A stretch of DNA of 64,000 bases from Acidobacteriota bacterium (GCA_016196035.1 JACPYM010000059.1:52528-116527), one strand, 5' to 3'. Counted from the stretch's first letter, positions 7,675 to 63,660 are shown. Translations and numbers: made by a program. Notes: a model not told the origin generated them from the letters alone.

Positions 7675-7689
7675 GCCGATGCGACTGAG

Positions 7690-34337: not shown

Positions 34338-34389
34338 TTCCAAGCGCTAAATCAGAGCAATCAAGCTTGGTGCAGAACCGGGAGCGCTA

Positions 34390-34590
34390 GCGACTGGGTG
34401 TGGTCGAGAGTTCTTTCTTTGGTAGTGGCTCAAAGAGGAGAGGTCTGGCCGCAGATCAACGCTGGAAAACGCGGATCAGACCTATTAACCAATTGAATTG
34501 GTCTGCGTTGGTCGGCGTTGATCTGCGGCGTGGCTCTCTCCCCATTGAGCCACTACCCTTTCTTTTAGCGTTTACCCGGTCGCTATACCA
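34390..34590. repeat. ~200-bp imperfect palindrome (MITE-like), centre ccaattgaattgg
   Basis: Blocks ggtagtggctca/tgagccactacc, gccgcagatcaacgc/gcgttgatctgcggc, agcgactggg/cccggtcgct symmetric about 34496. Confidence 0.5.
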
Positions 34591-34627
34591 TACACGGGCA
34601 TAGGTTGAGCTTTTTCGGAGGGCAGAA

Positions 34628-34726
34628 GAGAGATTACGGAACTGACGGAAATAACGGAACAGACAGAAGTCTTTCAGGTTTTCTTTTCCGTGTGTTCCGT
34701 TATTTCCGTCTGTTCCGTAATCTCAA
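34628..34726. repeat. Family C hairpin element copy C2
   Basis: gagattacggaactgacggaaataacggaacagac ... ttccgtgtgttccgttatttccgtctgttccgtaatctc. Confidence 0.7.
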
Positions 34727-34840
34727 AAAAGTCCTGGCTGAAAAGCTCAATCTATGACCGTGCGCGGTATCGCGCTCCCGGTTCTGTACTTGCACTCGTT
34801 TCAAACCTTCAATCACAAACCTGCCAGAAAATTCCCGCCC

Positions 34841-34861
34841 GATGACTTAAGTCACTGCCAA
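34841..34861. promoter_or_regulatory. Candidate operator: GATGACTTAAGTCACTGCCAA (perfect 12-bp palindrome TGACTTAAGTCA) ~90 bp upstream of ric
   Basis: 23-nt stretch identical to 38256..38278 upstream of flavoprotein-Rieske operon. Confidence 0.45.
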
Positions 34862-34940
34862 GCCGTGCCCTGCCGCCTACACTGCACGCATCGTCAAACT
34901 ATCTCAATACTTCTTGGTGAATCACTTGCAGGAGGCATTT

Positions 34941-35714
34941 ATGCAGATCAATACACAGGAAACCGTCGGACAACTGGCCGTGCATCTGCCCAGCGCGCCG
35001 CGCGTCTTTGAGCAATTCGGCATTGATTATTGTTGCGGCGGACAGCAGACGCTCGCCGCAGCGTGCGCGCAACGCCACGTGCCGCTCGACCGCGTGCTCG
35101 ATTCGCTGGCCGAAGCCGCCGAATGGCAGCAACTGGCCGGCGCGCCGCGCGATTGGCGCGGCGCGACGCTGACCGCGTTGCAGCAATTCATCGTGGACAC
35201 GCATCACGTCTTCACGCGGCAGGAATTAGCCCGGCTGGAAAAACTCGCGGCCAAAGTCTATGCCGCGCACGGCAGCCGCCACCCTGAATTGGCGCGCTTG
35301 CAAGAACTGTTTTTGCAACTGAAGGAAGAATTGTTGCCGCACATGCTGAAAGAAGAGCAGGTGCTTTTCCCGTATGTGGCGCGCTTGGAAGAAGCCGCGC
35401 AGGCAGGCCAGCCCGCGCCGCCAGCCTTTTTCGGCACAGTCAATCAGCCGGTGCGGATGATGATGCGCGAACACGACACGGCGGGCGACTTGCTCAAGGC
35501 ATTGCGCCAGACGGCGGGCGATTATGTCGTGCCTGCCGATGCTTGCCCAAGTTTCCGCGCGTTGTATCAGGCTCTGCCCGAACTCGAAGCCGACCTGCAT
35601 CAGCACATTCATTTGGAAAACAATTTGCATTTCCCGCGCGCGGTCGAACTCGAAGCGCAACTCGCACCTGAATTGCAAAGCATGACGCAAGCGTTCCGCT
35701 GTCTGGGGCATTGA
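34941..35714 (+). CDS. ytfE: Iron-sulfur cluster repair di-iron protein (RIC / YtfE / ScdA family)
   Basis: N-terminal ScdA_N 'FGIDYCCGG' motif followed by hemerythrin-like His/Glu-rich repeats; GGAGG RBS. Confidence 0.8.
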   Translation: MQINTQETVGQLAVHLPSAPRVFEQFGIDYCCGGQQTLAAACAQRHVPLDRVLDSLAEAAEWQQLAGAPRDWRGATLTALQQFIVDTHHVFTRQELARLEKLAAKVYAAHGSRHPELARLQELFLQLKEELLPHMLKEEQVLFPYVARLEEAAQAGQPAPPAFFGTVNQPVRMMMREHDTAGDLLKALRQTAGDYVVPADACPSFRALYQALPELEADLHQHIHLENNLHFPRAVELEAQLAPELQSMTQAFRCLGH

Positions 35715-35741
35715 ACGCCAGACAGCGGAATCGAGGTAACT

Positions 35742-36572
35742 ATGGACATCAACGCCGTTCGCACCATCGCGCGGCAAGAGCTGGTCATCAACATCCGCAA
35801 CAAATGGACGTTAATTTTCGCCTGTGTCTTCGGCGGCTTGGTGCTCACCATTTCCTATTTCGGGATGTTGACGGCGGGTGCGATTGGCTTTCAGAGCTTC
35901 GCGCGCACCTCGGCCAGCTTGCTCAATCTGGTGTTGTATATCGTGCCCCTCGTCGCGTTGACGATGGGCACGCTCAGTTTTACCAGCGAGAAAAGCCTGA
36001 GCGAGATGCTCTTTGCCCAACCCGTCACGCGCACCGAAATCCTGTTGGGGAAACTGGCTGGGTTGTTCGCTTCGATTCTGACGGCAACGCTAATCGGTTT
36101 CGGGCTGGCGGGTTTCATCATCGCGTCGAAAGCGGGCACGCAAGGGTTGCTGCGCTATCCGGTGTTCGTCGCGTTGTCGTTGCTGCTGGCCTTGGTCTTT
36201 CTGACGCTGGCGGCGCTGGTGTCGTCGTTGTGCCAGCGCAAGACCAAGGCGTTCGGCGTGGTGATGTTCCTCTGGTTCTTCTTCGTTTTGTTTTATGACC
36301 TGCTGGTGATCGGCGTGACGTTTTTGCTGAAAGAACACGCGGCCAATCAATTTATCTTCGCCTCGCTGTTTGGCAATCCGGTGGACATGGTGCGCGTCGC
36401 CAGCCTGATGGTGCTGGATGGGAAGGAAGTCTTTGGCGCGGCGGGCGCGGCGCTCACCAGGTTTTTGGGTGGTGAAACGGCGAGCCTGTCCTTATTGATC
36501 GGGGGCTTGGTTGTTTGGACAGTCGTGCCGTTTCTGGCCGCGCGGCGTTTGCTGCAACGGCAGGATATTTAA
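35742..36572 (+). CDS. nosY: ABC-2 type permease, NosY-like (nitrous oxide reductase maturation transporter permease)
   Basis: 6-TM ABC-2 permease whose pattern ('IARQEL..IRNKW', 'TEILLGKLAG') matches NosY as I remember it; the only nosY candidate near nosDFL. Confidence 0.65.
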   Translation: MDINAVRTIARQELVINIRNKWTLIFACVFGGLVLTISYFGMLTAGAIGFQSFARTSASLLNLVLYIVPLVALTMGTLSFTSEKSLSEMLFAQPVTRTEILLGKLAGLFASILTATLIGFGLAGFIIASKAGTQGLLRYPVFVALSLLLALVFLTLAALVSSLCQRKTKAFGVVMFLWFFFVLFYDLLVIGVTFLLKEHAANQFIFASLFGNPVDMVRVASLMVLDGKEVFGAAGAALTRFLGGETASLSLLIGGLVVWTVVPFLAARRLLQRQDI

Positions 36573-36665
36573 CGCTGATGTTTTGATGCGCCGCGTCTTT
36601 GGAGCGCGTGCGGCACCGGCTGCCGCTTTGGCATCTCTTTGATCGTTCATACATCAAGGAAATAC

Positions 36666-36840
36666 TAGAGCGGTTTGCAGTTGCGTTTACGGGAGTCAGT
36701 TGACATTGGGACAGTACCGCGCGCGTGAGCAAGTGGCGCGTCAAGCTTGCCCCCTTGGCTGAATTGCCAAAGCGCCGCTTGCTCACGCGCGCGGTACTGT
36801 CCCGCTGCGCGGTTTTCCCGTACACCGTAGTGAAAACCGC
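36666..36840. repeat. Family B element copy B2 (inverted orientation, no tandem expansion)
   Basis: Termini are reverse complements of B1 termini; internal gacagtaccgcgcgcgtgagcaagtgg / ccgcttgctcacgcgcgcggtactgtc inverted arms. Confidence 0.7.
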
Positions 36841-36922
36841 TCTGAAGCGGCAGCCGGTGCCGCACGCACTCCAAAGGCTGCGCCTAGCCGATTTGCCCTC
36901 ATGGAATCGCGGGTAAATAACA

Positions 36923-38113
36923 ATGAAGCGTTGGCATAGCATCCTGGCAATCCTCTTCGTCCCGCTCCTCGTCGCGGGCGGCGGATTGCTAGTGCGGCAT
37001 CTCGCGCGCGAACGCACCGAACGCGGCCATTTCGAGCGTAGCGAAACCGAGTTGATGGTGACCAATCTGGCGCGCGTGCCGGTGCAGTTGTTCAAAGCGG
37101 GCCGTAACTTGGCCGAGGCGCAACTGCTCAATGATTTCGACGGCGCGCGCCGCTGGCTGTCAGGGGGCAATCACTTTCTGAAAGCCAACTTCCCCCACCG
37201 CGAAGTTTTTTATCCTATTCCTCTCATCGGTTATCGGCGCGGCCCCGATGCCGAAGGTGCATTCATCATCACAATTCGTTCGCTGAATGAGATGGAACCG
37301 CCAAGCGCAGCCAACGGGCAACACGGCTGGGCGTTCATCCCGAATGGCAGCTTCCTGTTGGGCGACCGGCAAAACCCGCGCGAGCCGCATTATGTCTGGC
37401 TGCCAGGCTTTTTCATCGGCAAGTTTGAAGTGAGCAATGCCGAATACACCGAGTTTCTACGCGCTCCGCAGGGCTACGCTGACGATGCGCAGTGGACGGA
37501 AGCCGGGCGCGTATGGAAGGCCGCGAATACTTCGCAAAGCAGCGCCTTGCTCAAATCGGTTGCGGCGGAATTCGAACGCTTCGGCCAACCCGATCAGCCG
37601 GTGACGGGGGTAACGTGGTTCGAGGCGCAAGCCTATTGCCGCTGGCTGACCAGTCGCTTTGGCGAACGGAAATGGCTTTACGCGCTGCCTTCAGAAGCCG
37701 AATGGGAAAAGGCTGCACGCGGGCCAGATGGTTTTGATTTTGCGCTTAGCCAGACGCTCAGCGATCAAGAGGTACAGCTTTACAATTGGAGGAAGAACCC
37801 CGACGCGCCCGTCACAGTCGTCGGAGCAGCCGAAACGCCCGCGCTTTATCTACCAAACCGCTTCGGCATTTTTCACCTCGGCGGCAATGTCGTCGAGTGG
37901 ACGAGTTCGATCACCAACCCCTTTAATCGCGAACATCTTTACCTCGATGAAGAGCGCAACCGCCTCGAAGGCGGTGAAGAGCGCGTGGCGCGTGGCGGTT
38001 CGTGGTATAGCGCGAGCATCGCCTTGCTGGGTGTGGCCTATCGCGACTCGTTTCGGCCTGAGATCACGCATCACGATTTGGGCTTTCGCATCGTGGCGCG
38101 ACCGCTGCCCTAA
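36923..38113 (+). CDS. FGE-sulfatase (SUMF1/formylglycine-generating enzyme) domain protein with N-terminal membrane anchor; NirV-like
   Basis: 'GVTWFEAQAYCRWL', 'LPSEAEWEKAARG', 'RGGSWYS' FGE-domain motifs. Confidence 0.75.
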   Translation: MKRWHSILAILFVPLLVAGGGLLVRHLARERTERGHFERSETELMVTNLARVPVQLFKAGRNLAEAQLLNDFDGARRWLSGGNHFLKANFPHREVFYPIPLIGYRRGPDAEGAFIITIRSLNEMEPPSAANGQHGWAFIPNGSFLLGDRQNPREPHYVWLPGFFIGKFEVSNAEYTEFLRAPQGYADDAQWTEAGRVWKAANTSQSSALLKSVAAEFERFGQPDQPVTGVTWFEAQAYCRWLTSRFGERKWLYALPSEAEWEKAARGPDGFDFALSQTLSDQEVQLYNWRKNPDAPVTVVGAAETPALYLPNRFGIFHLGGNVVEWTSSITNPFNREHLYLDEERNRLEGGEERVARGGSWYSASIALLGVAYRDSFRPEITHHDLGFRIVARPLP

Positions 38114-38257
38114 CCTGGGAGCGCAGGCATCCCGCCTGCCGTCAAACAAAGCCGCGTAGCATCCTTATCTTGACGAAAAGGGTAAGGATGCTGCGCGCTT
38201 TTCTTATTTGCAGGCGGGACGCCTGCGCCCCCAGGAAATGCAAATAAATTTCGCACC

Positions 38258-38278
38258 GATGACTTAAGTCACTGCCAA
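38258..38278. promoter_or_regulatory. Candidate operator copy 2: GATGACTTAAGTCACTGCCAA ~150 bp upstream of flavoprotein gene
   Basis: Identical to 34841..34861. Confidence 0.45.
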
Positions 38279-38423
38279 CCGCCGCCCACCCGCGTAATTT
38301 ACGCTTTGACCAAGACCAACAATCCGGTCAGTTCCCTTCGACCCACTCGCGGAAGTCAGTGCGAGCCGAGCCGAATTTACGCAATCCAGGTAGCCCGAAA
38401 TTGGGCGGTTTGAGGCTGGCGCT

Positions 38424-40355
38424 ATGAGCGACTTCAAGTACAAGACCATCCTTCCCGACATTGAATTTTGGAAAGCTATGGTGCCTTGCCAGGCGGCGTG
38501 CCCGGTCAATACCGATGCGGGCCGCTATGTGCAACTGATCGCGCAGGGCAAATTTGAAGACGCCTATTTCGTCGCGCGTTCGCCCAATCCGTTGGCTTCG
38601 GTGTGCGGGCGCATCTGTGCCGCGCCGTGTGAAGACCGTTGCCGACGCGGCAAGATAGACGCGCCCGTCAGCATTCGCGCGTTGAAGCGCTTCGTCACCG
38701 AACGTTACGGCGTCGAATCGCTCGCGCCCGATACGCAGGATCAATTGCGCGTGGGCCACGGCGATTTGGGCAACAAGGTGCGCGGGCATTTGCCGATCTT
38801 GCAAGCCAATCGCCGCCAGACGCCGCGCGGGCAAAAAGTCGCCGTCATCGGCGCGGGGCCTGCCGGGCTGGCTTGCGCGCACGATCTGGCGTTGATGGGT
38901 TATCGCGTGACGATTTTTGAAGCCACCGAACAAGCGGGCGGGATGATGTTTCATGGCATTCCCGAATTCCGCTTGCCGCGCGCCGTCATTGCCAAAGAGA
39001 TAGACAAGATCGAACAGCTCGGCGTCGAGATTCGCTACGGCACGCCGCTGACGGCTGAGTTCGGGTTGCAGGAATTGAAAGCGGATGGCTACGTCGCCGT
39101 CTTCCTCAGCGTCGGCGTGCAAAAAGGCCGCGACCTCAATATCGAAGGGGCCGAACTCGACGGCGTCATCAAAGCCGTGGATTACCTGATCAACATCAAC
39201 AACGGTTACCGCATGCAGTTGGGCAAGAAGGTGCTCGTCATCGGCGGCGGCTTCGTCGCCTTTGACGCCGCGCGGCTGGCGTTGCGCGCAGGGTTGGAGG
39301 CAGGAGGTGAACAGGATGAAGGCGCAGGTGAATTGAAAACCGCCCTCGACGCTGCGCGCGCCGCCGTCAGAGCAGGTGCGACCGAAGTACATATGGTCAG
39401 TTTGGAATCCTTTGACGAATTGCCGGTGATGCGCACGACGCAGGGCAAGGAAGAGTTTGAAGAGGCGCACCGCGAAGGCATCGTCTTTCATCCGCAACGC
39501 AGCGCGCGCCGCTTCGTCAGCCGCAATGGCCGCGTGCAGGCAGCGGAATTCAAAGGCGTCAAACGCACCTATGACGAACAGGGCCGCTTCAGTCCGCAAT
39601 TCGACGAAGACTTTAGCGAAACGCTGGAAGCCGATTCGGTGATTCTCGCCATCGGCCAGCAAGCCGATCTCTCGTTCATCAAACCCGCCGACGGCGTCGA
39701 GCTTACGCCGCAAGGCACGATCAAGGTGGAGCGCGCGACGCTAGCGACGAGTGCGCCCGGCCTCTTCGCGGGCGGCGACGTGGCGTTTGGCCCGCGCAAC
39801 TTGATCGAAGCCGTGGCGAACGGCAAACGCGCGGCGCTCTCGATTGACGATTACTTGCACAGCGCCGAGACGCACACGGTTTTCAACCTGACGGTCGAAC
39901 GACTGCCCAATCGCACCTATACGATGCCGGAAGAGTATGAGCAACTGGCGCGGCATACCCCGCCGACCATCGCGCTCGACCGCCGCACCGGCATCTCGGA
40001 AGTCGAGACCGGCTACAACGAAGCGCAGGCGCGTGAGCAGGCTGAACGCTGTTTGTCGTGTCACATCCAAACCATCTATGACCCGGCGAAATGCGTGCTG
40101 TGCAACCGCTGTGTGGACGTGTGCCCGGAATACTGTTTGAAGCTGGTGCCGCTGGATGAGCTTGATCTGGATGAACCGACGAAGGAACGCATCGTGGCTG
40201 ATTCGGGCATCACGGTCGAGTTGGGGCAACCCTTATCAGCAATGATCAAAGACGATGACAAGTGCATCCGTTGTGGTTTGTGCGCGCTGCGCTGCCCGAC
40301 GGACGCGATGACGATGGAGGTCTTCTACTATGAAGAGCAAGCAGTCGTGGCTTAA
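38424..40355 (+). CDS. GltD/NfnB/SudA-like NAD(P)H-dependent FeS flavoprotein oxidoreductase with C-terminal 2x[4Fe-4S] ferredoxin domain
   Basis: N-terminal Cys-cluster domain, 'VAVIGAGPAGLACA' FAD and 'VLVIGGGFVAFDAA' NAD(P) Rossmann motifs, C-terminal 'CVLCNRCVDVCP' and 'CIRCGLCALRCP'; 3' end overlaps Rieske gene. Confidence 0.75.
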   Translation: MSDFKYKTILPDIEFWKAMVPCQAACPVNTDAGRYVQLIAQGKFEDAYFVARSPNPLASVCGRICAAPCEDRCRRGKIDAPVSIRALKRFVTERYGVESLAPDTQDQLRVGHGDLGNKVRGHLPILQANRRQTPRGQKVAVIGAGPAGLACAHDLALMGYRVTIFEATEQAGGMMFHGIPEFRLPRAVIAKEIDKIEQLGVEIRYGTPLTAEFGLQELKADGYVAVFLSVGVQKGRDLNIEGAELDGVIKAVDYLININNGYRMQLGKKVLVIGGGFVAFDAARLALRAGLEAGGEQDEGAGELKTALDAARAAVRAGATEVHMVSLESFDELPVMRTTQGKEEFEEAHREGIVFHPQRSARRFVSRNGRVQAAEFKGVKRTYDEQGRFSPQFDEDFSETLEADSVILAIGQQADLSFIKPADGVELTPQGTIKVERATLATSAPGLFAGGDVAFGPRNLIEAVANGKRAALSIDDYLHSAETHTVFNLTVERLPNRTYTMPEEYEQLARHTPPTIALDRRTGISEVETGYNEAQAREQAERCLSCHIQTIYDPAKCVLCNRCVDVCPEYCLKLVPLDELDLDEPTKERIVADSGITVELGQPLSAMIKDDDKCIRCGLCALRCPTDAMTMEVFYYEEQAVVA

Positions 40356-40947
40356 CGCGCGAATTTCAAATTTGAGAGCGAAGACAGAAACCGAGCAACA
40401 GCGGCTGGAGCGCCTCAAGCAGGAAGTTCTGGGCGAAGGCGAAGCCGCCAGCCGGCCCACGCGGCGCTCCTTTCTCACGCGGCTCGGGTTCGGCGCGACG
40501 CTGCTGGCGCTCGCTGGGCAGGCCTACGCCTTCCTGCGCTCGCTCAAACCGAATGTGCTGTACGAAGCGCCGCAACGCTTCAAGGTCGGCACACCCGATC
40601 AATTCGGCGAAGGCGGCAAATTCCTCGAAGACAAACGCCTGTTTGTGTTTCGGCAAGGCAAGACGTTTTACGCCATCTCGGCAAGCTGCACGCATCTGGG
40701 CTGCACGGTCAAAATGGAGAAGCTCAACCAGCCGAAGAAGGTCAAGACGCGCCAGCGCGAATTCGAGGAGCAATACGAATTTCATTGCCCTTGCCACGGC
40801 TCGAAGTATTACGGCGACGGGACGAATTACGCCGGCCCCGCGCCGCGCCCGCTCGATTATTTCAAACTCGAACTGGCGGCAGAGGACGGGCAATTGATCG
40901 TGGATATGGAGCAGAAGGTCGGGCAGGACTTTCGCTTGACAGTGTAG
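40330..40947 (+). CDS. Rieske [2Fe-2S] protein with Tat signal
   Basis: 'RRSFLTRLG' Tat motif; 'CTHLGCTV' and 'CPCHGSKY' Rieske boxes. Confidence 0.8.
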   Translation: MKSKQSWLNARISNLRAKTETEQQRLERLKQEVLGEGEAASRPTRRSFLTRLGFGATLLALAGQAYAFLRSLKPNVLYEAPQRFKVGTPDQFGEGGKFLEDKRLFVFRQGKTFYAISASCTHLGCTVKMEKLNQPKKVKTRQREFEEQYEFHCPCHGSKYYGDGTNYAGPAPRPLDYFKLELAAEDGQLIVDMEQKVGQDFRLTV

Positions 40948-41032
40948 CCGGGGACTAGCGGCTAGGGACTAGGGGCTGGAATTAAGCCACTGTCGCTAGC
41001 CCCTAGCCCCTGGCCTCTAACCCCTAAAAATT
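40948..41032. repeat. Intergenic CTAGGGG/CCCCTAG repeat hairpin (Rieske-cyt b spacer)
   Basis: gggactagcggctagggactaggggctgg ... gctagcccctagcccctggcc. Confidence 0.5.
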
Positions 41033-42349
41033 ATGGCAGCGAGAAAATCAACTTGGGAAAAGATCACGTGGACGTGGCAGCCCGCGAGCGAGCGCGAAGC
41101 CGGGGATTCCATCGTGCGCAACTTTTTGCTGCATTGGTTTCCGGCCAAGGTCGCGCGCGAAAGCCTGTCGTGGGGCTACTCGTTCTGGCTCGGTACGGTG
41201 TCGGCGGTGCTCTTTCTGATCCTGACGATCACGGGCGGCGTGCTGATGTTTCTGTACGTGCCGTCGGTCGAACGTGCCTATTTGTCGGTCAAGGATTTGG
41301 AATTCACCGTCTCGTTCGGCTGGTTCCTGCGCGGGCTGCATCGCATCGGCGCGCACCTGATGGTGGCGTTTGTGTTTGTGCATATGGTGCGCGTCTTCCT
41401 GACCGGCGCGTACAAGAACGGCACGGCGACGCAGCAGAACCGTCCGTTGAACTGGGTGATTGGCGTCGTGCTGTTGTTGGCGACGTTGCTGCTCTCATTC
41501 ACCGGTTATCTATTGCCGTGGGATCAACTGGCCTATTGGGCGATCACCGTCGGCACGAATATCGCCAGCGCCGCGCCCGTCGTGGGCGAGGCAATGCGCT
41601 TCATTTTGCTGGGCGGCAACACGATCGAGCAAGGCACGCTGATTCGTTTTTACGTGCTGCATTGTTTCTTCCTGCCGCTGCTGGTGCTGGCGTTGTTCTC
41701 GTATCACATGTGGCGCGTGCGCAAAGACGGCGGCTTGGCTTGCGTAGACAAACAGGCGCTCGACCAAAAGCGCGAAAAGGTCGTGCCGAGCAAGAGCAAG
41801 ACCTATTCGCTGCTGGGCATTGCGAGCGGCGCGTCCGTGCACGTTGAGACTTCGCTGGTGGATGAAGTCCAGCACACGGTGCCGTCATCGCCCACGCTGA
41901 CGCGGCGTTTGGCGTTGGTGACGATGGTGACGCTCGCGCTCTCTTCGGTGTTGACACTGCTCTTCCATGCGCCGCTCGAAGCCGCCGCCAACCCTGCCGT
42001 CACGCCAAATCCGGCCAAAGCGCCTTGGTACTTTCTCTGGTTGCAAGAACTGGTCACGATCACCACCTTTACCGTGGGTGGTTACACCATCAATGGCGCG
42101 TTGATCGGCGGCATCATTATTCCAGGCTTGTTGGTCGCGGCGGCCATCGCGTGGCCCTACTTCGACAAGAGTTCGGTGCGCTCGGTGGGCGTGTGGTTTG
42201 CGCCGGAGCGCCGCAAGCAGAATTTGATTTTCTTGCTGGTGGTCGCGGGGATTTTGCTCTTCACCATCATCGGCACGTATCTGCGCGGGCCGTATTGGAA
42301 TTGGTATTGGCCGTGGCAAAGCTGGCCGGTGATGCCGCGTAAGTTTTGA
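41033..42349 (+). CDS. Cytochrome b (b6/bc-type, quinol-oxidising subunit)
   Basis: Polytopic; 'HRIGAHLMVAFVFVHMVRVF' bis-His heme-ligand helix typical of cytochrome b. Confidence 0.8.
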   Translation: MAARKSTWEKITWTWQPASEREAGDSIVRNFLLHWFPAKVARESLSWGYSFWLGTVSAVLFLILTITGGVLMFLYVPSVERAYLSVKDLEFTVSFGWFLRGLHRIGAHLMVAFVFVHMVRVFLTGAYKNGTATQQNRPLNWVIGVVLLLATLLLSFTGYLLPWDQLAYWAITVGTNIASAAPVVGEAMRFILLGGNTIEQGTLIRFYVLHCFFLPLLVLALFSYHMWRVRKDGGLACVDKQALDQKREKVVPSKSKTYSLLGIASGASVHVETSLVDEVQHTVPSSPTLTRRLALVTMVTLALSSVLTLLFHAPLEAAANPAVTPNPAKAPWYFLWLQELVTITTFTVGGYTINGALIGGIIIPGLLVAAAIAWPYFDKSSVRSVGVWFAPERRKQNLIFLLVVAGILLFTIIGTYLRGPYWNWYWPWQSWPVMPRKF

Positions 42350-42436
42350 AGATGGGGGGCAGGGGGGCCAGGGGCCAGTGAATTCAAGCCCCAGCCCCCA
42401 GTCCCTAGACCCCAGCCCCCAAGATCGGAGGTTTTA
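42350..42436. repeat. Intergenic G-tract/C-tract hairpin (cyt b-cyt c spacer)
   Basis: ggggggcaggggggccaggggccag ... ccccagcccccagtccctagaccccagccccc. Confidence 0.5.
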
Positions 42437-43660
42437 GTGTTCAGCAAAGACGCCATCAAAATTTACCTGCTCGGTGTGGTGATGCTGGCCGTGACGGGGT
42501 TCATTTTCTGGGACAACGTGCTGCCTGAATGGAGCGGCTATCAGAGCGATTTCCGCGCGCTGGTCGCCAAGAAATTCGGCGCGGCGCGCGCGGCGGCGGT
42601 GCCCAGCGGCCTGCATCAGATTTGGGTGAAAGACCTCGACCGCGTAGACCGTTGCACGACCTGTCATCAGGGCATGGAATGGAAAGGCCTGGAAAGCGCC
42701 GCGCAACCGTTTCGTTCGCACCCCACCGAAATTCTGAAAGCGCATCCGCTGAATCAATTCGGCTGCACGGCCTGTCACGGCGGGCAAGGTTATGCCACTG
42801 ATCTCGCCGGCGCGCACGGGCAGGTCGAACATTGGGAAGAGCCGCTGCTCGGCAAAAAAGTCAGCGACACCTATCTGGTCAAAGACAAGAAAGCGCTGAT
42901 GCAGGTCAATTGCAATTCCTGTCATCGCTATGAACGCGAAACCAAAGGCGCCGATTACATCAACGAAGCCAAGCAAATCGTGCAGGAAAAAAACTGCCGC
43001 GCCTGCCACACCATCAACGGACGCGGCGGCACCATCGGCCCCGACCTCACCAACGTCGGCGACAAAGCGCCGGAGCAATACGATTACGGTCACGTGTCGG
43101 GGGTGAAAACAGCGTTCGCCTGGCATGTCGCACATTTGCAAAAACCGAAAGCGATGACGCCGGATACGGTCATGCCCGATTTCAATTTCTCTACGCGGCA
43201 GGCGCAGGCGTTGTCCTTGCTTGTCATGAGTTGGAAACGCGCGACGGTGCCGACGCGCTACATCCCCGGCGCGACGCCCAAGGATGTGCCGACGGCGGAA
43301 GAGATCGCCAAAGAGAAACGCATGCTCGAAGGCGAAGGCGCTTTCTTCGTCAAGAAGGGCTGCTTTATCTGCCATTCCGTGGATTCGCTGGGTATTGAGA
43401 ATTCGGCCAAGATCGGGCCGGATTTGTCCGAGGCTGTAACGGACGTGCAGAGCCGCTTTGGCCGCACGCTGGAAGATTTTTTGAAAGCGCCCAACGGTAC
43501 GATGGCCGTGGTGTTGGCGACACAGATTCATTTGACTGACGACGAGAAACGCGAGGCGGTCGAACGTTTGAAGATCGCTTATCAACGCAAGCAGGAGGGC
43601 GCGAAGCCGAACGCTGCGCCCACGCCTGCGGCCTCGCCGTCACCGGTAGCGAAGAAATAA
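42437..43660 (+). CDS. Membrane-anchored pentaheme c-type cytochrome
   Basis: Five CxxCH motifs (CTTCH, CTACH, CNSCH, CRACH, CFICH); N-terminal TM helix. Confidence 0.75.
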   Translation: MFSKDAIKIYLLGVVMLAVTGFIFWDNVLPEWSGYQSDFRALVAKKFGAARAAAVPSGLHQIWVKDLDRVDRCTTCHQGMEWKGLESAAQPFRSHPTEILKAHPLNQFGCTACHGGQGYATDLAGAHGQVEHWEEPLLGKKVSDTYLVKDKKALMQVNCNSCHRYERETKGADYINEAKQIVQEKNCRACHTINGRGGTIGPDLTNVGDKAPEQYDYGHVSGVKTAFAWHVAHLQKPKAMTPDTVMPDFNFSTRQAQALSLLVMSWKRATVPTRYIPGATPKDVPTAEEIAKEKRMLEGEGAFFVKKGCFICHSVDSLGIENSAKIGPDLSEAVTDVQSRFGRTLEDFLKAPNGTMAVVLATQIHLTDDEKREAVERLKIAYQRKQEGAKPNAAPTPAASPSPVAKK

Positions 43661-43803
43661 CCTGGGTTCGCACGCTTCCCAGCGTGCTGTAAAAAAGTCG
43701 CGCAGCGTTCCGAATAAATTCAATTGGGTCGCACGCGATTTAGGGAAAAGGAAGGCTGCGCCGCTTCTTTCATAGCACGCAAGGATGCGTGCGTACCCAG
43801 GGA
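43661..43803. repeat. Family A palindromic element, degenerate copy A4
   Basis: cctgggttcgcacgcttcccagcgtgctg ... gcgtgcgtacccaggg. Confidence 0.6.
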
Positions 43804-43878
43804 AAGGCTGCAACTCCGCGCCGCTCACGGGTTGAAGCTTGACCATCAACCACCGTTCCCATTTGGGGAGGAACCACC

Positions 43879-45744
43879 ATGGAATTACAAACAACAAAAC
43901 TTGATCGCAAGAAAATGAAATGGCTCGGCGCAGGAGCGGTCTGCGTCGCGCTGCTCGGCTTTGCTTTGACCAGTTGCGGCAAGCAACCAAGCACTGCTGA
44001 ATTGGGCGGCACTGCGGAAGCTGCTGCGGCCACTTATGTCGCGCCGGGCGACACCGATGAATATTACCTGTTCTATTCGGGCGGCCATTCGGGCAACGTC
44101 TATGTTGCGGGCGTGCCTTCGATGCGGCACATCTCGACGATTCCCGTGTTTGCGCCTTACCCGGCGACGGGGTATGGCTTTGACGAAGAGTCGAAGAAGA
44201 TGCTGGGCGGGTTCACATGGGGCGACGTGCACCACCCGGCCATCAGCGAGACCAAGGGCGATTACGACGGGCGTTGGCTCTTCGTGAATGACAACGCCAA
44301 CAATCGGCTGGCGCGCATTGACCTGCGCGATTTCAAAACCAAACAGATCCTGGGGCCGATGCCGAATATCTCCGGCTATCACGGCGGTTCGTTCGTGACG
44401 CCTAATACGGAATACGTGTTGGCGGCCTCGCGCTTCTCGGTGCCGTTGCCGAAAGGGACCGTCGAACCGATTGAAAGTTATGCGACGAAATACCACGGGG
44501 TCGTGGCGGGCGTAAAAATTGATCCGACCTCGGGCGAGATGAGCGTCGGTTTTCAAATCCTGATGCCGCCCTTCAATTTTGATTTAGGCGACGCGGGCAA
44601 AGGGCCGAGCGAGGGCTGGGCCTTCTGGACGTGCTACAACTCAGAACGCGCGACCGGCAAGCTCGAAGTGACTTCGACACAAAAAGACCGCGACTACATT
44701 GCAGCGGTGAATTGGAAAGAAGCTGAGAAAGCCGTCGCCGCAGGCAAAGCCAAAATGATCAGCGGCGTGCCGGTGCTTGATCCCAAAGAAGTGCCGGGCA
44801 TCGTTTATTTCGTGCCGTGCAGCAAATCGCCGCACGGCGTGGATGTCACGCCCGATGGCAAATACTTCATCGGCAGCGGCAAGCTGCAATCCATCACGAC
44901 GGCGTTCAACGTCGAGAAGATGCTGACCACGATTCAGAACAAAGATTTCACCGGCAACGAAGACGGCATCCCGGTGCTGAATTACGACAAGGTCAAAGAC
45001 GCCGAAGTCAACGTCGGCCTCGGCCCGCTGCATACGCAATTCGACAATGAGGGCAATGCGTATACCAGCCTCTTTGTCGAGAGCGCCGTGGCGAAATGGA
45101 AGCTTGGCACGTGGGAAGTGCTCGACAAGATTCCAGTTACGTACAACATCGGCCACCTCTGCGCGGCGGAAGGCGACACAGTTCATCCCGCTGGCAAATA
45201 TCTGGTCGCGCTCAATAAGCTTTCGCACGGACGCCACCTGAACGTCGGCCCCTCGCAGCCGGAATGCTCGCAACTCATCAACATCGGCGGCGAAAAGATG
45301 AAGCTGCTCTACGACGCCTTCACCGAACCCGAACCGCATTACGCCCAGATGATCAAGGCCGACAAGCTGAAACCCTTCGAGGTTTATCCCAAAGAAAGCA
45401 ACAAGAACCCGAACGCGATCTGGGACGTGAAGGACGCCAGCGTGGTGCGCAGCGGCAACAACGTCACGGTCAAGCTGGTCGCGGTGCGCAGCAGCTTCGA
45501 GCCCAACAAGATCGAGGTCAACAAAGGTGACACAGTGACGATTCACATCACCAACATCGAACAGACCACCGATGAGCTGCATGGCTTTGGGCTGCTCGAT
45601 TACAACATCAACGTGGTGATAGACCCCGGCGAGACCAAGACGATCAAGTTCGTGGCCGATAAACCGGGTGTTTTCGCCTACTATTGCACCAACTTCTGCT
45701 CGGCGTTGCATCAAGAGATGCAGGGCTATTTGTTGGTGAAGTAG
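43879..45744 (+). CDS. nosZ: Nitrous oxide reductase NosZ (clade II/Sec-dependent, lipoprotein-type signal)
   Basis: C-terminal CuA motif 'CTNFCSALHQEMQGY'; 'LTSC' lipobox rather than Tat motif; size ~620 aa. Confidence 0.9.
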   Translation: MELQTTKLDRKKMKWLGAGAVCVALLGFALTSCGKQPSTAELGGTAEAAAATYVAPGDTDEYYLFYSGGHSGNVYVAGVPSMRHISTIPVFAPYPATGYGFDEESKKMLGGFTWGDVHHPAISETKGDYDGRWLFVNDNANNRLARIDLRDFKTKQILGPMPNISGYHGGSFVTPNTEYVLAASRFSVPLPKGTVEPIESYATKYHGVVAGVKIDPTSGEMSVGFQILMPPFNFDLGDAGKGPSEGWAFWTCYNSERATGKLEVTSTQKDRDYIAAVNWKEAEKAVAAGKAKMISGVPVLDPKEVPGIVYFVPCSKSPHGVDVTPDGKYFIGSGKLQSITTAFNVEKMLTTIQNKDFTGNEDGIPVLNYDKVKDAEVNVGLGPLHTQFDNEGNAYTSLFVESAVAKWKLGTWEVLDKIPVTYNIGHLCAAEGDTVHPAGKYLVALNKLSHGRHLNVGPSQPECSQLINIGGEKMKLLYDAFTEPEPHYAQMIKADKLKPFEVYPKESNKNPNAIWDVKDASVVRSGNNVTVKLVAVRSSFEPNKIEVNKGDTVTIHITNIEQTTDELHGFGLLDYNINVVIDPGETKTIKFVADKPGVFAYYCTNFCSALHQEMQGYLLVK

Positions 45745-45750
45745 TGAGGA

Positions 45751-45884
45751 GACCTCAGACCTCAGACTTCAGACCACAGACCTCAGACCTGTCTTGGATC
45801 GGCGGCCACAGGCGAATTGAGATCGTAGGTCTGAAGTCTGAAGTCTGAGGTCTGAGGTCTGAAGTCTGAGGTCTGAGGTCTGTG
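45751..45884. repeat. Heptamer-repeat hairpin: (CAGACCT)n arm, ~35-nt loop, (AGGTCTG/AAGTCTG)n arm ending at nosB-like start codon
   Basis: gacctcagacctcagacttcagaccacagacctcagacctg ... aggtctgaagtctgaagtctgaggtctgaggtctgaagtctgaggtctgaggtctg. Confidence 0.8.
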
Positions 45885-46517
45885 ATGAAAAGCTGGCTCG
45901 ACAACGCGAACCATTTTTTTGAACTGCCGCTCACGCTGCGCAGCCGCGTGCTGATTCTGGTGGGTGTAGTGCTGTTGACGCCGGTCTTTCTGTTCCCCTT
46001 GTGGAATATGACCTTCAAGTCGAATCAGTATCTCGACGGACTGACGCTCAACATTTACGCCTATCAACTCAAAGGCGGCATGACGCCGAACCGCGATGAT
46101 TTGCGCGAGATCAACTCGCTCAATCATTACATCGGTATGCGTCCGCTGTTGGAAAGCGATTTCGGCGAATTCGTCTGGATTCCCTTTGTCATCGGGGTGC
46201 TGGGCGTGCTGGCGTTGCGCGCTCTGGTCATCGGCAAGATGGCCGGGCTGGTGGATGTCTTTGTGATCTTCACCTATTTCGGGCTGTTCTCGTTCTGGGG
46301 CTTTTACAACAAGCTCTATGCGTATGGACACCATCTTGATCCGACGGCGGCGATCAAGGTGCCGCCGTTCACCCCGCCGCTGCTGGGGACGCAAGTCGTC
46401 GGCAACTTTACGGTGTCGAGCTATCCGGGCGTCGCGTCGTTTGCGCTGGTGTCGTTTGCCGTGTTGTTGCTGGCGGCCATCTTTCTGTCGCGCAAGCAGA
46501 CGAACGAGGCGGCGTGA
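45885..46517 (+). CDS. Polytopic membrane protein, NosB-like (clade II nos accessory)
   Basis: 4-5 TM helices, position directly downstream of nosZ and 4-bp overlap with nosD; assignment by synteny. Confidence 0.5.
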   Translation: MKSWLDNANHFFELPLTLRSRVLILVGVVLLTPVFLFPLWNMTFKSNQYLDGLTLNIYAYQLKGGMTPNRDDLREINSLNHYIGMRPLLESDFGEFVWIPFVIGVLGVLALRALVIGKMAGLVDVFVIFTYFGLFSFWGFYNKLYAYGHHLDPTAAIKVPPFTPPLLGTQVVGNFTVSSYPGVASFALVSFAVLLLAAIFLSRKQTNEAA

Positions 46518-47914
46518 TGTGGCGCAATGTCATCGGGCTGGTTTTGCTGGGAACACTGAGCGCGTTGGCAGTGCGGGCCGACACCTTCACGGTTGGCCTG
46601 CCGCCCGCGCGCTTTCAAGCTTTGACTGACGCCCTTATTGCCGCTCAGCCCGGCGATATTGTGCAAGTTCAACCCGGCACTTACACCGGACAATTCCGGC
46701 TCGACAAACCGCTGACCTTGGTTGGCATTGGCAAACCCGTGTTGCACGGTACAGGCCAGGGCAGCGTCGTAATCATCACGGCTGATCATTGCACCGTGCG
46801 CGGGTTCGTTATCGAACACAGCGGCGGTGATCTGACCGCCGAAGATTCCGGCCTGCTGCTCAAAGCGGATGACAATCTGATCGAAGCGAACGAATTGCGC
46901 GATGTGCTTTACGGCATTTACCTATACCACGCCAGCCGCAACACGCTGCGCGGCAATACGGTGCGCGGGCGGCGCGAACTTGAATTGGGCGAACGTGGCG
47001 CGGCGCTGCACCTCTGGGATTCGCCCGACAACATCATCGAAGACAACACCATCGGTGATGCGCGCGATGGGCTGTACATCCAGGCTTGTTCGGGCACGCT
47101 GGTGCGGCATAACCGTGTGCGCGACGTGCGCTACGGCCTGCATTACATGAACTCGGACGACAATCGGTTTGAGGACAATCTGTTTGAACACAACGTGGCG
47201 GGCGCGGCGATTATGTATTCGCGGCGCATCACGCTGCGACGCAATGCCTTCGCACACAATCGCGGCTTCAGTTCATTCGGCATTCTCTTTCAGGATTGTG
47301 ACGAGATCGTGGCCGAAGAGAATTTCATCATTGATAACGCGACGGGCATTTTTATCGAGGCCCTGCGTAAGAGCAGCTTTCGCCGCAACGTGATCGCCGA
47401 GAATGATCTGGCCTTGCAAATGTTCAGCAACGCCGATCAAACGCTGTTTGCCGCGAATAACTTCGTCGAAAATCTCAGTCCATTGCAGGTCGTCGGCAAA
47501 CGCACCAACGCTGTTTGGCAGGTCAACGGGCAGGGCAATTATTGGAGCGATTACGCCGGTTACGACCTGGACGGCAACGGCATCGGCGATGTGCCGCACA
47601 AGGTGCAAAACGTTTTTGAATACCTCGAAGGCAACTATCCGCGCTTGCGGCTTTACCTGAACAGCCCCGCCGCGCAGGCGTTGGCTGCGGCTGAACAGAG
47701 CTTCCCGATTCTCAAAGGCGCAAACGAAGCCGATACCGCGCCGTTGATGCAGGCCGTCAAGTTGCAGTTCCCGTTGGAAGTGGTGCCGCTGCAAACCGCG
47801 CCACGTCGCGCGACGCAATGGCTGCTGAGTCTCTGCTCATTGCTTAGCGCCAGTGGAGCGTTGTTTGTCATGTGGAAACATCGCCAGCCGCGCGGCGCCA
47901 AGGCAGGAGCCTGA
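46514..47914 (+). CDS. nosD: Periplasmic copper-binding right-handed beta-helix protein NosD
   Basis: Signal peptide, parallel beta-helix repeats ('NxIxxN' ladders), operon position before nosF. Confidence 0.85.
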   Translation: MMWRNVIGLVLLGTLSALAVRADTFTVGLPPARFQALTDALIAAQPGDIVQVQPGTYTGQFRLDKPLTLVGIGKPVLHGTGQGSVVIITADHCTVRGFVIEHSGGDLTAEDSGLLLKADDNLIEANELRDVLYGIYLYHASRNTLRGNTVRGRRELELGERGAALHLWDSPDNIIEDNTIGDARDGLYIQACSGTLVRHNRVRDVRYGLHYMNSDDNRFEDNLFEHNVAGAAIMYSRRITLRRNAFAHNRGFSSFGILFQDCDEIVAEENFIIDNATGIFIEALRKSSFRRNVIAENDLALQMFSNADQTLFAANNFVENLSPLQVVGKRTNAVWQVNGQGNYWSDYAGYDLDGNGIGDVPHKVQNVFEYLEGNYPRLRLYLNSPAAQALAAAEQSFPILKGANEADTAPLMQAVKLQFPLEVVPLQTAPRRATQWLLSLCSLLSASGALFVMWKHRQPRGAKAGA

Positions 47915-47915
47915 A

Positions 47916-48836
47916 ATGAGTATTCACGTAAACCATCTGACCCGCCGGTTTGGCGAACACGTTGCCGTCAACGATGTCTCGTTTGAGATCAAACCGGGCG
48001 AAACCTTTGCGCTGCTCGGGCCGAATGGCAGCGGCAAAACCACCACGTTGAAATGCATCGTGGGCTTGCTCGAACCGACGGCGGGACAAATCCAGATCAA
48101 CCAACTCGATGTTTGGAAAGACCCGCATCAGGCGCGGCGGTTATTCAGTTACTTGCCGCAGCGCGTCGCGTTCCCCGACGGCTTGACGGCGCGCGAAGTG
48201 CTGCAATTTTATGCTGATCTGCGCCAGCTCGCGCCGCAACGCGTAGACACAATCCTCAGCGGCGAACGCTTCCACTTCAACGGCTTCACCGACAAACCGG
48301 TCGGCAAGTTTTCGGGCGGCATGGTGCAACGCCTGGGCCTCGCCGTCGCCTGCCTGCCCGATGCGCCCGTGCTGTTGCTGGATGAGCCGACGGTGAGTCT
48401 TGATCCCGAAGGCGCGCTACGCTTCCGCGCCTTTCTGCAAGCGCTCAAAGCAGAAGGCAAGACGATTGTGTTCACTTCGCACGTGCTGGCCGATGTCGAA
48501 CAACTGGCCGACCGCGTGGCGATTCTGGTGGGCGGCAAACTGGTCGCCATCGAATCCATCACCGCTTTGCGCGAAGGGCTGATGCGCAGCAGCCGCATGC
48601 GCGTCGTCTTGCGCGCGCCGCAGCCATCCTTGCAAACGGCCGCGCTGACGGCAGGCGCGAGCGAAGTTTTGGTTGAAGGCGAATCCTTGCTGATTGTTTC
48701 GCGCCCGGAAGACCGGTTGGAGATTTTGCGGGCGCTCGAAAACAACGGCGGGCACGTCGAGCGCTTTGCCACTGAAGAGCTTTCGCTGGAAGACATCTAT
48801 CTGCGCTACATCGAGGAATCAGCAACACACGTGTGA
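47916..48836 (+). CDS. nosF: ABC transporter ATP-binding protein NosF
   Basis: Walker A 'GPNGSGKTT', signature 'FSGGMVQRLGLA', Walker B 'LLLDEPT'. Confidence 0.85.
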   Translation: MSIHVNHLTRRFGEHVAVNDVSFEIKPGETFALLGPNGSGKTTTLKCIVGLLEPTAGQIQINQLDVWKDPHQARRLFSYLPQRVAFPDGLTAREVLQFYADLRQLAPQRVDTILSGERFHFNGFTDKPVGKFSGGMVQRLGLAVACLPDAPVLLLDEPTVSLDPEGALRFRAFLQALKAEGKTIVFTSHVLADVEQLADRVAILVGGKLVAIESITALREGLMRSSRMRVVLRAPQPSLQTAALTAGASEVLVEGESLLIVSRPEDRLEILRALENNGGHVERFATEELSLEDIYLRYIEESATHV

Positions 48837-48839
48837 ATT

Positions 48840-49298
48840 ATGCCGAGACCGTTTGAGAGAAAACACTGCGTCATTCTTTTTGCCGCAGCCCTCTGGCTGC
48901 TCGCGGCTTGCCAAAGCCACAAACTGGAACCCGCCGCCCTGTCGCCTGAAGATATGTGCACCGATTGCAAGATGGCGATTTCAGAAAAGCAATTCGCCGC
49001 GCAATACCTGACCAAAGATGGCGAGGCCGTTAAATTCGATGACCTCGGCTGTCTGGCGCGTTATCTGAAAAGTCACCCGCAACAACGCGCCGAAAGCGCG
49101 GCCTTTTTCGTGATGGATTACGAAACGAAACAATGGCTCAACGCCGAGTCCGCGTTTTACGTCAACTCCGATAAATTCCAAACGCCAATGCGTGGCGGCT
49201 TTGCGGCCTTCAGTACACGTCAACGCGCCGAGGCCGCTGCTGCTGCCAAACAAGGCCGCTTGTTCACTTGGCAGGCAGTGCTGACCAACGCCAAATAG
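48840..49298 (+). CDS. nosL: Copper chaperone lipoprotein NosL
   Basis: Lipobox 'LLAAC', 'CTDCKMAIS' Cu-binding region, ~150 aa, follows nosF with 3-bp gap. Confidence 0.8.
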   Translation: MPRPFERKHCVILFAAALWLLAACQSHKLEPAALSPEDMCTDCKMAISEKQFAAQYLTKDGEAVKFDDLGCLARYLKSHPQQRAESAAFFVMDYETKQWLNAESAFYVNSDKFQTPMRGGFAAFSTRQRAEAAAAAKQGRLFTWQAVLTNAK

Positions 49299-62525: not shown

Positions 62526-63230
62526 ATGAAAACGACCCCACTCGCCAAACCTTCTCTCCCGGAATTGAGTCAACTCGCGCCCTTTCGTCAAGTGCCCGAA
62601 GAGCAATTGGCGCAGCTTGCCGAATTGATTTCCCGCAAGCAATTTCCCGCCAACACCCCGCTGATGATGGCCGAGCAAACGGGCGAGGTCGTCTATTTCA
62701 TTCTTGCTGGCACTGTCAAAATCCATCTCGAACAAGCCGATGGCAGCGAAGTCATCATCTCGATTTTGGGCCGGGGCGAAATTGTCGGCGAAATGAGCGC
62801 GCTGGGCATCGTCTACCGTTCGGCCAGCGTGCTGACGCTCGAAGCCTCGACCTTGCTCTGGTTGGATCGCGCGACCTTTCAACGTTGTCTGATGAACATG
62901 CCGATGCTGGCTTACAACCTGGCAGGCATTTTGTCGCTGCGCCTGCGCCACGCCAACGAAAAGATTCGCGCGCTGGCGACGCAATCCGTTGAAGCCCGGC
63001 TGGCCCAACAGGTGCTGCTCTTCGCCGATCAATACGGCCAAACCCAACCGAACGGCGACATTTACATTCCGCTGCGCCTGACCCAAAGCGATCTGGCCGC
63101 CATGACTGGCTGTTCGCGCGAGCACGTCAACAAAGTCATCGTCTCTTACAAAGAGCGCAACTACCTTTCGGTTGATCGCCACTACCATCTGACCGTGCAT
63201 AACCAAGCCGCCCTGGAACGCCGCGCCTGA
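62526..63230 (+). CDS. Crp/Fnr-family transcriptional regulator
   Basis: cNMP-binding-like beta-roll plus C-terminal HTH 'RLTQSDLAAMTGCSREHVNKVI'. Confidence 0.8.
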   Translation: MKTTPLAKPSLPELSQLAPFRQVPEEQLAQLAELISRKQFPANTPLMMAEQTGEVVYFILAGTVKIHLEQADGSEVIISILGRGEIVGEMSALGIVYRSASVLTLEASTLLWLDRATFQRCLMNMPMLAYNLAGILSLRLRHANEKIRALATQSVEARLAQQVLLFADQYGQTQPNGDIYIPLRLTQSDLAAMTGCSREHVNKVIVSYKERNYLSVDRHYHLTVHNQAALERRA

Positions 63231-63564: not shown

Positions 63565-63660
63565 TCGGTTTTCACTTCAGTGTGCGGGAAAGCTGCGCTG
63601 CGGTACCGCACCGGTGCCAACTGCTTTTGTAAACGCAATGGCAAACTGATCTAAGAAAGG
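63565..63660. repeat. Family B element, short deletion-derivative copy B3
   Basis: ttttcacttcagtgtgcgggaaagctgcgctgcggtaccgc ... ttgtaaacgcaatggcaaactgatctaag matches both B1 termini. Confidence 0.55.

Follow-up and report, generated by a model that had tools for sequence, protein, structure and literature searches.

A palindromic block heading both ric and a clade II nos operon in an Acidobacteriota genome has the marks of a Crp/Fnr-type operator

Why should genes for the repair of iron–sulfur (Fe-S) clusters and genes for the respiration of nitrous oxide (N2O) be headed by the same short palindrome in an acidobacterium? The case arises in a 64,000-nucleotide (nt) stretch of DNA from an Acidobacteriota bacterium (GCA_016196035.1 JACPYM010000059.1:52528-116527; the whole stretch is called the window below), in which an identical 23-nt block, CCGATGACTTAAGTCACTGCCAA, lies upstream of ric, the gene for a di-iron Fe-S repair protein, and again upstream of an operon that runs from a flavoprotein gene through nosZ to nosL. 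We consider it highly probable, on comparative sequence grounds, that the two copies are operators of class II promoters bound by a homodimer of the Crp/Fnr family that is linked to ric in related genomes, and that they drive, in response to a nitric oxide (NO)-type cue, both the nos operon and a unit of ric, nosY and a gene of the FGE-sulfatase/EgtB-like family (FGE). The block is present on the + strand in just two copies in the 64 kb, scored below with a position weight matrix (PWM):

34839..34861, + strand: copy 1 of the 23-nt block, an exact match (PWM score 23.6) with orthologous sites 5' of ric in relatives; its 14-base-pair (bp) operator ATGACTTAAGTCAC lies at 34842-34855 and its palindrome at 34843-34854, with the dyad centre at 34848.5.
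38256..38278, + strand: copy 2 of the 23-nt block, an exact match (PWM score 23.6) with a ric-type ATGAC left half; its 14-bp operator lies at 38259-38272, with the dyad centre at 38265.5.

An earlier note on this DNA had pointed out the repeat, placing the start of copy 1 correctly at 34839 in its text and wrongly at 34841 in its header, and the repeat itself is borne out: a search of the window allowing up to three mismatches found no further copy, and 100 dinucleotide-preserving shuffles yielded no match. The core of the block, TGACTTAAGTCA, is a perfect 12-bp palindrome of the form TGA-CTTAAG-TCA and, among the 15 perfect 12-bp palindromes in the window, the only one present twice. Its central CTTAAG had been called rare in this DNA; with 4 occurrences in 64 kb against about 10.5 expected from the base composition (~58% GC), it is moderately so. 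Both copies can be aligned in register over 58 nt with 76% identity (34822-34879 against 38239-38296), and their dyad centres lie 92.5 bp from the ric ATG (34941) and 158.5 bp from the flavoprotein ATG (38424), in agreement with the distance of 90-160 bp given before. When the window was scored with a symmetrised PWM, just these two sites exceeded 13, both at 23.6, the next best matches (11-12.6) being at chance level. Rfam at gathering thresholds gave no match anywhere in the window, and a structured RNA or riboswitch in the leaders was rejected on that basis and because the loop-free 12-bp palindrome has no meaningful hairpin.

We searched GTDB species representatives with the flavoprotein as query and obtained 73 related loci (numbered L001 and so on), the closest public relatives of the window being metagenome-assembled genomes of Blastocatellia type. 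They bear out the Acidobacteriota origin to which base composition, a CarboxypepD_reg/OMP_b-brl_4 receptor and DUF1800 in the window also point. In about 25 of these loci, from Blastocatellia, Pyrinomonadaceae, Bryobacteraceae and Terriglobia, the dyad precedes ric, the flavoprotein gene or both, with the consensus (G/A)TGAC-TTAA-GTCAC-TGC; across 27 sites the pattern is (G/A)TGAC-TTAA-GTCAC with a TGA-N6-TCA core. At a PWM score of at least 16, the 1.09 Mb of related loci contain 29 sites, against 2 in shuffled sequence, and almost all of them lie 5' of ric, the flavoprotein gene, a regulator gene, nnrS or a hemerythrin gene. Orthologous sites upstream of ric were found in L001, L002, L011, L023, L036, L007, L103 and L107 and in 16 metagenome contigs, and GTGAC/GTGAT-type sites 70-142 bp 5' of the flavoprotein gene number 16, in 15 genome loci. 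If ric comes immediately before the flavoprotein gene (L002, L011, L036) the site is at ric only, and if the nos operon stands alone the site is at the flavoprotein gene; judged from gene order, the site tracks the head of the predicted transcription unit. Further high-scoring sites lie between a divergent nnrS pair (L024), ahead of hemerythrin (L014) and ahead of ric-nnrS (L007), as well as ahead of a radical-SAM gene (L007) and of methyltransferase genes (L014, L065). An independent metagenome scan with the exact 18-mer GATGACTTAAGTCACTGC returned 25 unrelated contigs with different flanks, 16 of which carry ric 85-105 bp downstream of the site and 13 of which have a member of one and the same Crp/Fnr family adjoining it (60-82% identical to the L001 regulator); 18 of the 23 bases of the window block correspond to the family-wide ric-promoter consensus.

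At a class II Crp/Fnr promoter, the dimer site is centred at -41.5 and overlaps a poor -35 element, and the -10 element is recognisable. In 33 of 38 aligned sites, a -10-like hexamer of the form [TG]AnnnT lies 21-24 nt past the 14-mer, against 10% at random positions, and in both window promoters the hexamer starts 29.5 bp from the dyad centre:

34878..34883, + strand: predicted -10 element TACACT of the ric promoter, which would put the start at ~34890 and the dyad at ~ -41.5.
38295..38300, + strand: predicted -10 element TAATTT of the nos-operon promoter.

If the hexamer is a real -10, its fixed offset places the dyad near -41.5. The place of the -35 is taken by the conserved asymmetric TGC flank, where CTGCCA, read by eye, agrees with TTGACA at 4 of 6 positions, and a sigma-70 consensus scan requiring at least 9 of the 12 hexamer positions matched neither promoter. 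A -35 this weak would suit a promoter that needs an activator. Both window promoters thus appear to have class II Crp/Fnr geometry, and their predicted architecture (-41.5 dyad, poor -35, recognisable -10) would match that of the class II promoters of E. coli CRP and FNR.

The gene content around the sites points to a candidate regulator. In 7 genome loci the site is flanked by ric or hemerythrin on one side and by a divergent Crp/Fnr gene on the other. For the family to which these genes belong, more than 2140 homologs come up at E <= 1e-40, each under a generic name only, and three of three homologs looked up by protein in other assemblies (P0079, P0086 and P0115) adjoin ric or hemerythrin, each with a site scoring at least 20 upstream of the ric/hemerythrin gene: between that gene and the regulator gene (P0115), between that gene and a ywiC-regulator pair (P0079), or ahead of a co-directional hemerythrin-ywiC-regulator string (P0086). 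A 13-member alignment defines the hallmarks GREQVIHVE, PYPST and a recognition helix, VREVVSR. The cyclic-nucleotide (cNMP) pocket of cAMP-CRP proteins carries an Arg-Ser pair, read as RSA in E. coli CRP and RTS in M. tuberculosis CRP. In the ric-linked regulators, PYPST/YPS(T) stands in place of the phosphate-binding Arg, aligning to GPRTSS of M. tuberculosis CRP, and the 13-member alignment contains neither an invariant Cys nor an N-terminal Cys motif; unlike E. coli CRP and FNR, the effector domain lacks RSA and the [4Fe-4S] Cys cluster, which sets the regulator apart from cAMP-CRP and from oxygen sensors of FNR type alike. The helix places Arg-Glu at the positions of CRP R180/E181. In the correlation published by Rodionov et al. 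2005 (PMC1274295), this pair goes with G and A in a GTGA half-site, which fits the observed GTGAC half-site. Against solved structures, the best match was the unnamed Crp/Fnr protein 7ETS, followed by actinobacterial CRP/GlxR (83-100 bits) and then DNR (3DKW; 73 bits, E = 2e-19).

In several loci a gene for a YwiC-like membrane protein lies between operator and regulator gene, as it often does (L077 2882-3742, L103 5170-5967, L105 1002-1751). Where ywiC-crp is divergent from ric, the arrangement suggests that the ywiC-regulator operon is autoregulated from the same site.

We propose that a Crp/Fnr homodimer would bind (G/A)TGAC-N4-GTCAC centred about 41.5 bp upstream of the start, overlap the weak -35 (CTGCCA) and recruit RNA polymerase to the TAnnnT -10. 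Copy 1 would drive ric-nosY-FGE, ending at a hairpin at 38153-38207, and copy 2 would drive the flavoprotein-Rieske-cytochrome b-cytochrome c-nosZ-nosDFL operon. The regulator would be a member of the acidobacterial Crp/Fnr family that is divergent from ric in relatives, and Fe-S repair and N2O respiration would be induced together by a nitrogen-oxide or low-oxygen cue. The genes headed by the site are ric and nos in the window and also nnrS, hemerythrin and a Nap-like molybdopterin oxidoreductase in relatives, and a set of this type (ric/dnrN, nnrS, hemerythrin, nos) is controlled in other phyla by the NO-responsive DNR, NnrR, NsrR and HcpR (PMC1274295). By this likeness of regulon content, NO or nitrosative stress under low oxygen would be the most likely cue.

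The earlier note had read the palindrome as the operator of a dimeric regulator and named two kinds of candidate, an Rrf2/NsrR-like protein or a Crp/Fnr member such as the one encoded in the window itself:

62526..63230, + strand: Crp/Fnr gene, probably a cAMP-type Crp (Pfam cNMP_binding and HTH_Crp_2).

Were this window Crp to bind both sites, ric and nos would belong to a cAMP/Crp-type global regulon. It is a full-length Crp/Fnr protein whose helix, SREHVNK, also has the Arg-Glu pair (compare RETVNK in M. tuberculosis CRP) that the Rodionov correlation ties to GTGA half-sites, and a weak GTGATGTTTGTCAC (score 12) lies ~200 bp past its stop codon. However, it is just 22-29% identical to the regulator that is co-localised with the site in more than 20 independent contigs, it keeps the RSA motif, and its gene lies 24 kb away among unrelated genes, with no ortholog detected beside any site in the related loci. 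A PWM scan found no site upstream of the window Crp gene, and a match scoring 12 is what chance provides, 29 matches of at least 12 arising in 1.09 Mb of shuffled sequence. We rejected the window Crp as an ortholog of the ric-linked regulator on its identity and its different hallmark motifs; the choice of this gene, which is never a neighbour of the site in relatives, was probably wrong, and its binding of both sites is unlikely. Between the window Crp gene and a GH20 hexosaminidase gene, two weak dyads, GCGACGCGGGTCAC and GTGATGTTTGTCAC (63409-63445), have chance-level scores and could be sites of the window's own Crp.

Less probable still is that the 23-nt identity is a by-product of recent local duplication, or the end of a dispersed repeat or mobile element, with no regulatory role. 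Dispersed palindromic repeats do abound here (34370-34790, 36597-36876, 38114-38235) and recur in the window and in relatives, and the nos copy does resemble a copy of the ric promoter. Yet the palindrome lies outside the repeat elements, and the other copies of those elements (7687-7789, 26801-27074, 63562-63613) lack it; moreover, the motif is kept at orthologous promoters across Blastocatellia, Pyrinomonadaceae, Bryobacteraceae and Terriglobia while the flanks have diverged, indicating selection on the site itself. With two copies in 64 kb and neighbouring inverted repeats that recur without the palindrome, we rejected the origin as a repeat or mobile-element end, the finding that the earlier note had said would overturn its proposal. 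Least credible is an operator for a repressor of Rrf2/NsrR type that senses NO: in proteobacteria and Firmicutes ric (ytfE/dnrN) is classically under NsrR, and the left flank GATGAC is superficially like the NsrR half-site GATGyAT, but the NsrR operator gATGyAT-N5-ATrCATc (PMC1274295) is a 19-bp 7-5-7 dyad, not a 14-bp 5-4-5 one, its ATrCATc is unlike the right half here, the conserved symmetric positions TGAC/GTCA are the Crp/Fnr TGA-N6-TCA core, the site lies 5' of the -10-like hexamer in an activator position rather than over the -10 as for an NsrR repressor, and no Rrf2 gene adjoins the sites examined in relatives, whereas a Crp/Fnr gene adjoins many (the window's small open reading frames were not exhaustively scanned for Rrf2). 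The notion of a conserved operator-type site heading two nitrogen-oxide units thus stands, as does its Crp/Fnr version by core, position and linked gene, whereas the Rrf2/NsrR version fails on motif, position and the lack of a linked Rrf2 gene.

How the nos operon came by its copy can be approached through the first base of the site. Ric-type sites start with A in 7 of the 8 loci that were not pattern-selected, whereas all 16 nos (flavoprotein)-type sites start with G (Fisher's test, A versus G start: p = 8e-10 for all sites; ~2e-5, by hand calculation, without the pattern-selected contigs). The nos site of the window is of ric type, including its CCG and CAA flanks. In L003 and L019, the relatives nearest to the window, with a flavoprotein 97% identical, no site precedes the flavoprotein gene; L003 (nosY-flavoprotein) and L019 (FGE-flavoprotein, the arrangement seen in the window) share a different proximal leader, and TTGACTTTGAGCATTGTCACTGGC, upstream of nosY in L003, was rejected as a site because its spacing is wrong for the motif. 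In the window, the FGE gene and copy 2 are separated by a strong terminator-like hairpin (38153-38197) with a T tract behind it. Probably, the nos copy arose when the ric promoter was copied after nosY-FGE had come between ric and nos. In the simplest history, nosY, or nosY-FGE, would have moved from its usual place at the cluster tail to a position behind ric and ahead of the nos operon, and the ric promoter-operator module would then have been copied to the head of the nos operon in this lineage.

Several points weigh against this account of shared control by the ric-linked family and of a copied promoter. At many related loci, among them those of Kryptonia, some Pyrinomonadaceae, L003 and L019, the flavoprotein gene has no recognisable site ahead of it, and control is therefore not universal. 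A cognate family member is absent from the window by tblastn, and also from ~8.6 kb past its right end in the near-identical assembly GCA_016179065.1 (L099), where the extension holds GH20, peptidase, HNH and hydantoinase genes; a look-up at the left end yielded just a 4.6-kb contig. That this genome has such a member is an assumption, and the true regulator is probably encoded outside the window. The score of the regulator with DNR (73 bits) does not exceed its scores with actinobacterial CRPs (90-100 bits), and the signal is read from regulon content alone. The 58-nt similarity of the two copies could reflect shared promoter architecture rather than copying, an A/T-rich tract 5' of the site being common to ric promoters. 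The whole case is comparative, arguing from the observed repeat, motif conservation, -10 offset and regulator linkage to binding, activation, signal and duplication history.

Coupling of NO sensing to nir, nor, nos, nnrS and dnrN through Crp/Fnr activators is familiar from other bacteria, and its mechanism is textbook; new in this case are the phylum, the box GTGAC-N4-GTCAC, a regulator family that has no name and what looks like a copied promoter. The nearest parallels are DNR/DnrD of Pseudomonas and NNR/NnrR of Paracoccus and Rhodobacter, NO-responsive activators of the genes just listed. With these the acidobacterial system shares the superfamily, a 14-bp 5-4-5 TGA-N6-TCA dyad (here predicted to lie near -41.5), the lack of an FNR Cys cluster and of the cNMP Arg, and a regulon in which N2O reductase, nnrS and the Ric/DnrN Fe-S repair protein are mixed. 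It differs from them in its GTGAC-N4-GTCAC box (TTGAT-N4-ATCAA for DNR and TTGCG-N4-CGCAA for NnrR; PMC1274295), in a helix with Arg at the CRP-R180 position, and in its Acidobacteriota host, Sec-type clade II nosZ and flavoprotein-Rieske-cytochrome bc electron module. HcpR, the nitrosative-stress Crp/Fnr regulator of Desulfovibrio, other deltaproteobacteria and cyanobacteria, has the motifs wTGTGA-N6-TCACAw and TTGAC-N4-GTCAA (PMC1274295), and the acidobacterial box, compared by published motifs, combines features of both. Like Desulfovibrio HcpR, the ric-linked regulators pair an Arg-Glu helix with a G-containing half-site and are encoded divergently from a target; unlike HcpR, whose core target hcp was not seen in any locus examined, they are associated with ric, nos and nnrS. 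NssR of Campylobacter and NssA/B/C of Wolinella are also Crp/Fnr regulators of nitrogen-oxide respiration, including clade II nosZ, and of nitrosative-stress genes, and NssA/B/C are reported to mediate upregulation of NapA, NrfA and NosZ in Wolinella (summarised in PMC11539149); the acidobacterial system is unlike theirs, which have the motifs TTAAC-N4-GTTAA or TTGA-N6-TCAA, A180/Q181 in place of R/E in NssR, campylobacterotal hosts and a NosGH-type electron module.

A literature search with the motif string returned only the paper describing the HcpR motif TTGAC-N4-GTCAA and an unrelated paper on Pseudomonas katA, and no account of nos regulation in Acidobacteriota was found in the searchable literature. 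Recognition of Acidobacteriota with clade II nosZ as widespread soil N2O sinks is only now emerging, the first report of functional N2O reduction in the phylum dating from 2026 (PMC13122619). A searchable operator, (G/A)TGAC-TTAA-GTCAC-TGC, together with a candidate regulator family and a predicted regulon (ric, nnrS, hemerythrin, nos), makes this regulation testable, and suggests that these organisms switch on N2O reduction along with their nitrosative-stress defence instead of expressing it constitutively. We put forward tentatively, as somewhat bolder than the evidence yet favours, the view that the ric-linked VREVVSR regulators could be a distinct Acidobacteriota subfamily of Crp/Fnr proteins, not orthologs of DNR, NnrR, NssR or HcpR, with a GTGAC-N4-GTCAC box of their own, and a master switch through which sensing of NO (or N2O) governs clade II N2O respiration, the window also capturing a recent copy of the ric promoter-operator that restored control of a rearranged nos operon. 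If true, the VREVVSR family would be an NO (or N2O) switch in some of the most abundant soil bacteria.

The genes concerned fall into two predicted units. The earlier identification of ric, nosY and nosZ holds by TIGR03652, orthology and TIGR04246, respectively, Ric scoring 230 bits against an NCBIfam TIGR03652 cut-off of 204.7. Unit 1 and its boundary comprise:

34941..35714, + strand: ric (ytfE/scdA/dnrN family di-iron Fe-S repair protein; Pfam ScdA_N and Hemerythrin), first gene of unit 1, with a ribosome-binding site, AGGAGG, at 34930-34935.
35742..36572, + strand: nosY, ABC-2 permease of the NosDFY system, behind ric (Pfam ABC2_membrane_2 and orthology).
36597..36876, no strand assigned: nested long inverted repeats, a dispersed palindromic element with three arm pairs, not part of the operator.
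36923..38113, + strand: FGE-sulfatase/EgtB-like family gene, likely the last of unit 1 (Pfam FGE-sulfatase, E = 3e-40).
38153..38207, + strand: intrinsic-terminator-like hairpin at the boundary of unit 1 and the nos promoter, a 19-bp stem (38153-38197) followed by CTTTTCTTAT, by consensus match only.

Window NosY is 58-83% identical to the gene after nosL in most related Acidobacteriota clusters, and the orthology call was made on its 80-83% identity to the occupant of the nosD-F-L-Y tail in related clusters; no nosY follows nosL (which ends at 49298) in the window. A nosY set apart from nosDFL (nosL at 48840-49298) and placed behind ric is also seen in L001, L023, L031 and L003, most relatives having nosD-F-L-Y. 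The permease of the Cu/S maturation ABC system would thus be transcribed from the predicted ric promoter. FGE homologs close the nos cluster, after nosY or nosL, in L013 (21095-21907), L021 (20542-21633) and L024 (21137-21892); among acidobacterial clade II nos clusters an FGE-sulfatase/EgtB-like gene turns up repeatedly as an accessory at the tail, and in the window it accompanies nosY. NirV, encoded beside nirK, is in the same superfamily.

Unit 2 was assigned with Pfam and NCBIfam, and its gene order, flavoprotein-Rieske-cytochrome b-cytochrome c-nosZ-unknown-nosD-F-L-Y in the form ending with nosY, recurs in more than 50 of the 73 related loci:

38424..49298, + strand: unit 2, the flavoprotein-to-nosL operon.
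38424-40355: GltD-like Fe-S flavoprotein.
40330-40947: Rieske protein.
41033-42349: cytochrome b.
42437-43660: cytochrome c.
43879-45744: nosZ, Sec-dependent clade II (TIGR04246, 905 bits against a cut-off of 625).
45882-46517: conserved 211-amino-acid (aa) protein of unknown function between nosZ and nosD.
46514-47914: nosD.
47853-48836: nosF.
48840-49298: nosL.

The 211-aa protein had no Pfam or NCBIfam match. It occupies the same place in nearly all related nos clusters, with 49-84% identity among Acidobacteriota and Kryptonia-like members and less in the most distant ones, and may be a NosB-like accessory protein. Directly 3' of nosL lies a gene for an RskA-type anti-sigma factor (49471-50271), with no extracytoplasmic function sigma factor gene evident beside it.

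The 600-bp gap 5' of ric (34370-34790) is filled with nested long inverted repeats, with arms at 34370-34387/34772-34789, 34421-34442/34536-34557, 34581-34614/34741-34774 and 34630-34668/34686-34724. Further copies of the innermost hairpin lie at 7687-7789 and in L011 and L001, and it is therefore a dispersed element resembling repetitive extragenic palindromes or miniature inverted-repeat transposable elements. In relatives, the Crp/Fnr regulator gene occupies the position of this gap. The element at 36597-36876, between nosY and the FGE gene, is a 280-nt perfectly nested hairpin whose arm pairs are 79-97% complementary; it has no Rfam match, and related copies lie at 26801-27074, at 63562-63613 and in L099. 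This hairpin may attenuate or terminate transcription within the ric-nosY-FGE unit.

Some contigs carry, after ric, a paralogous flavoprotein-Rieske-cytochrome b-cytochrome c set with ~39% identity to that of the window (L077 6234-11700), and a molybdopterin oxidoreductase (Nap-like) lies downstream of ric in L079 (3217-5436) and L087 (5597-7264); in such contigs the same operator may control other nitrogen-oxide respiratory modules. The Kryptonia-type loci L022, L028, L029 and L032 have, near 9772 and 222 bp 5' of the flavoprotein gene, another conserved dyad-like element, (G/A)TGGTTTnAnTCAT, which may be the box of a different regulator.

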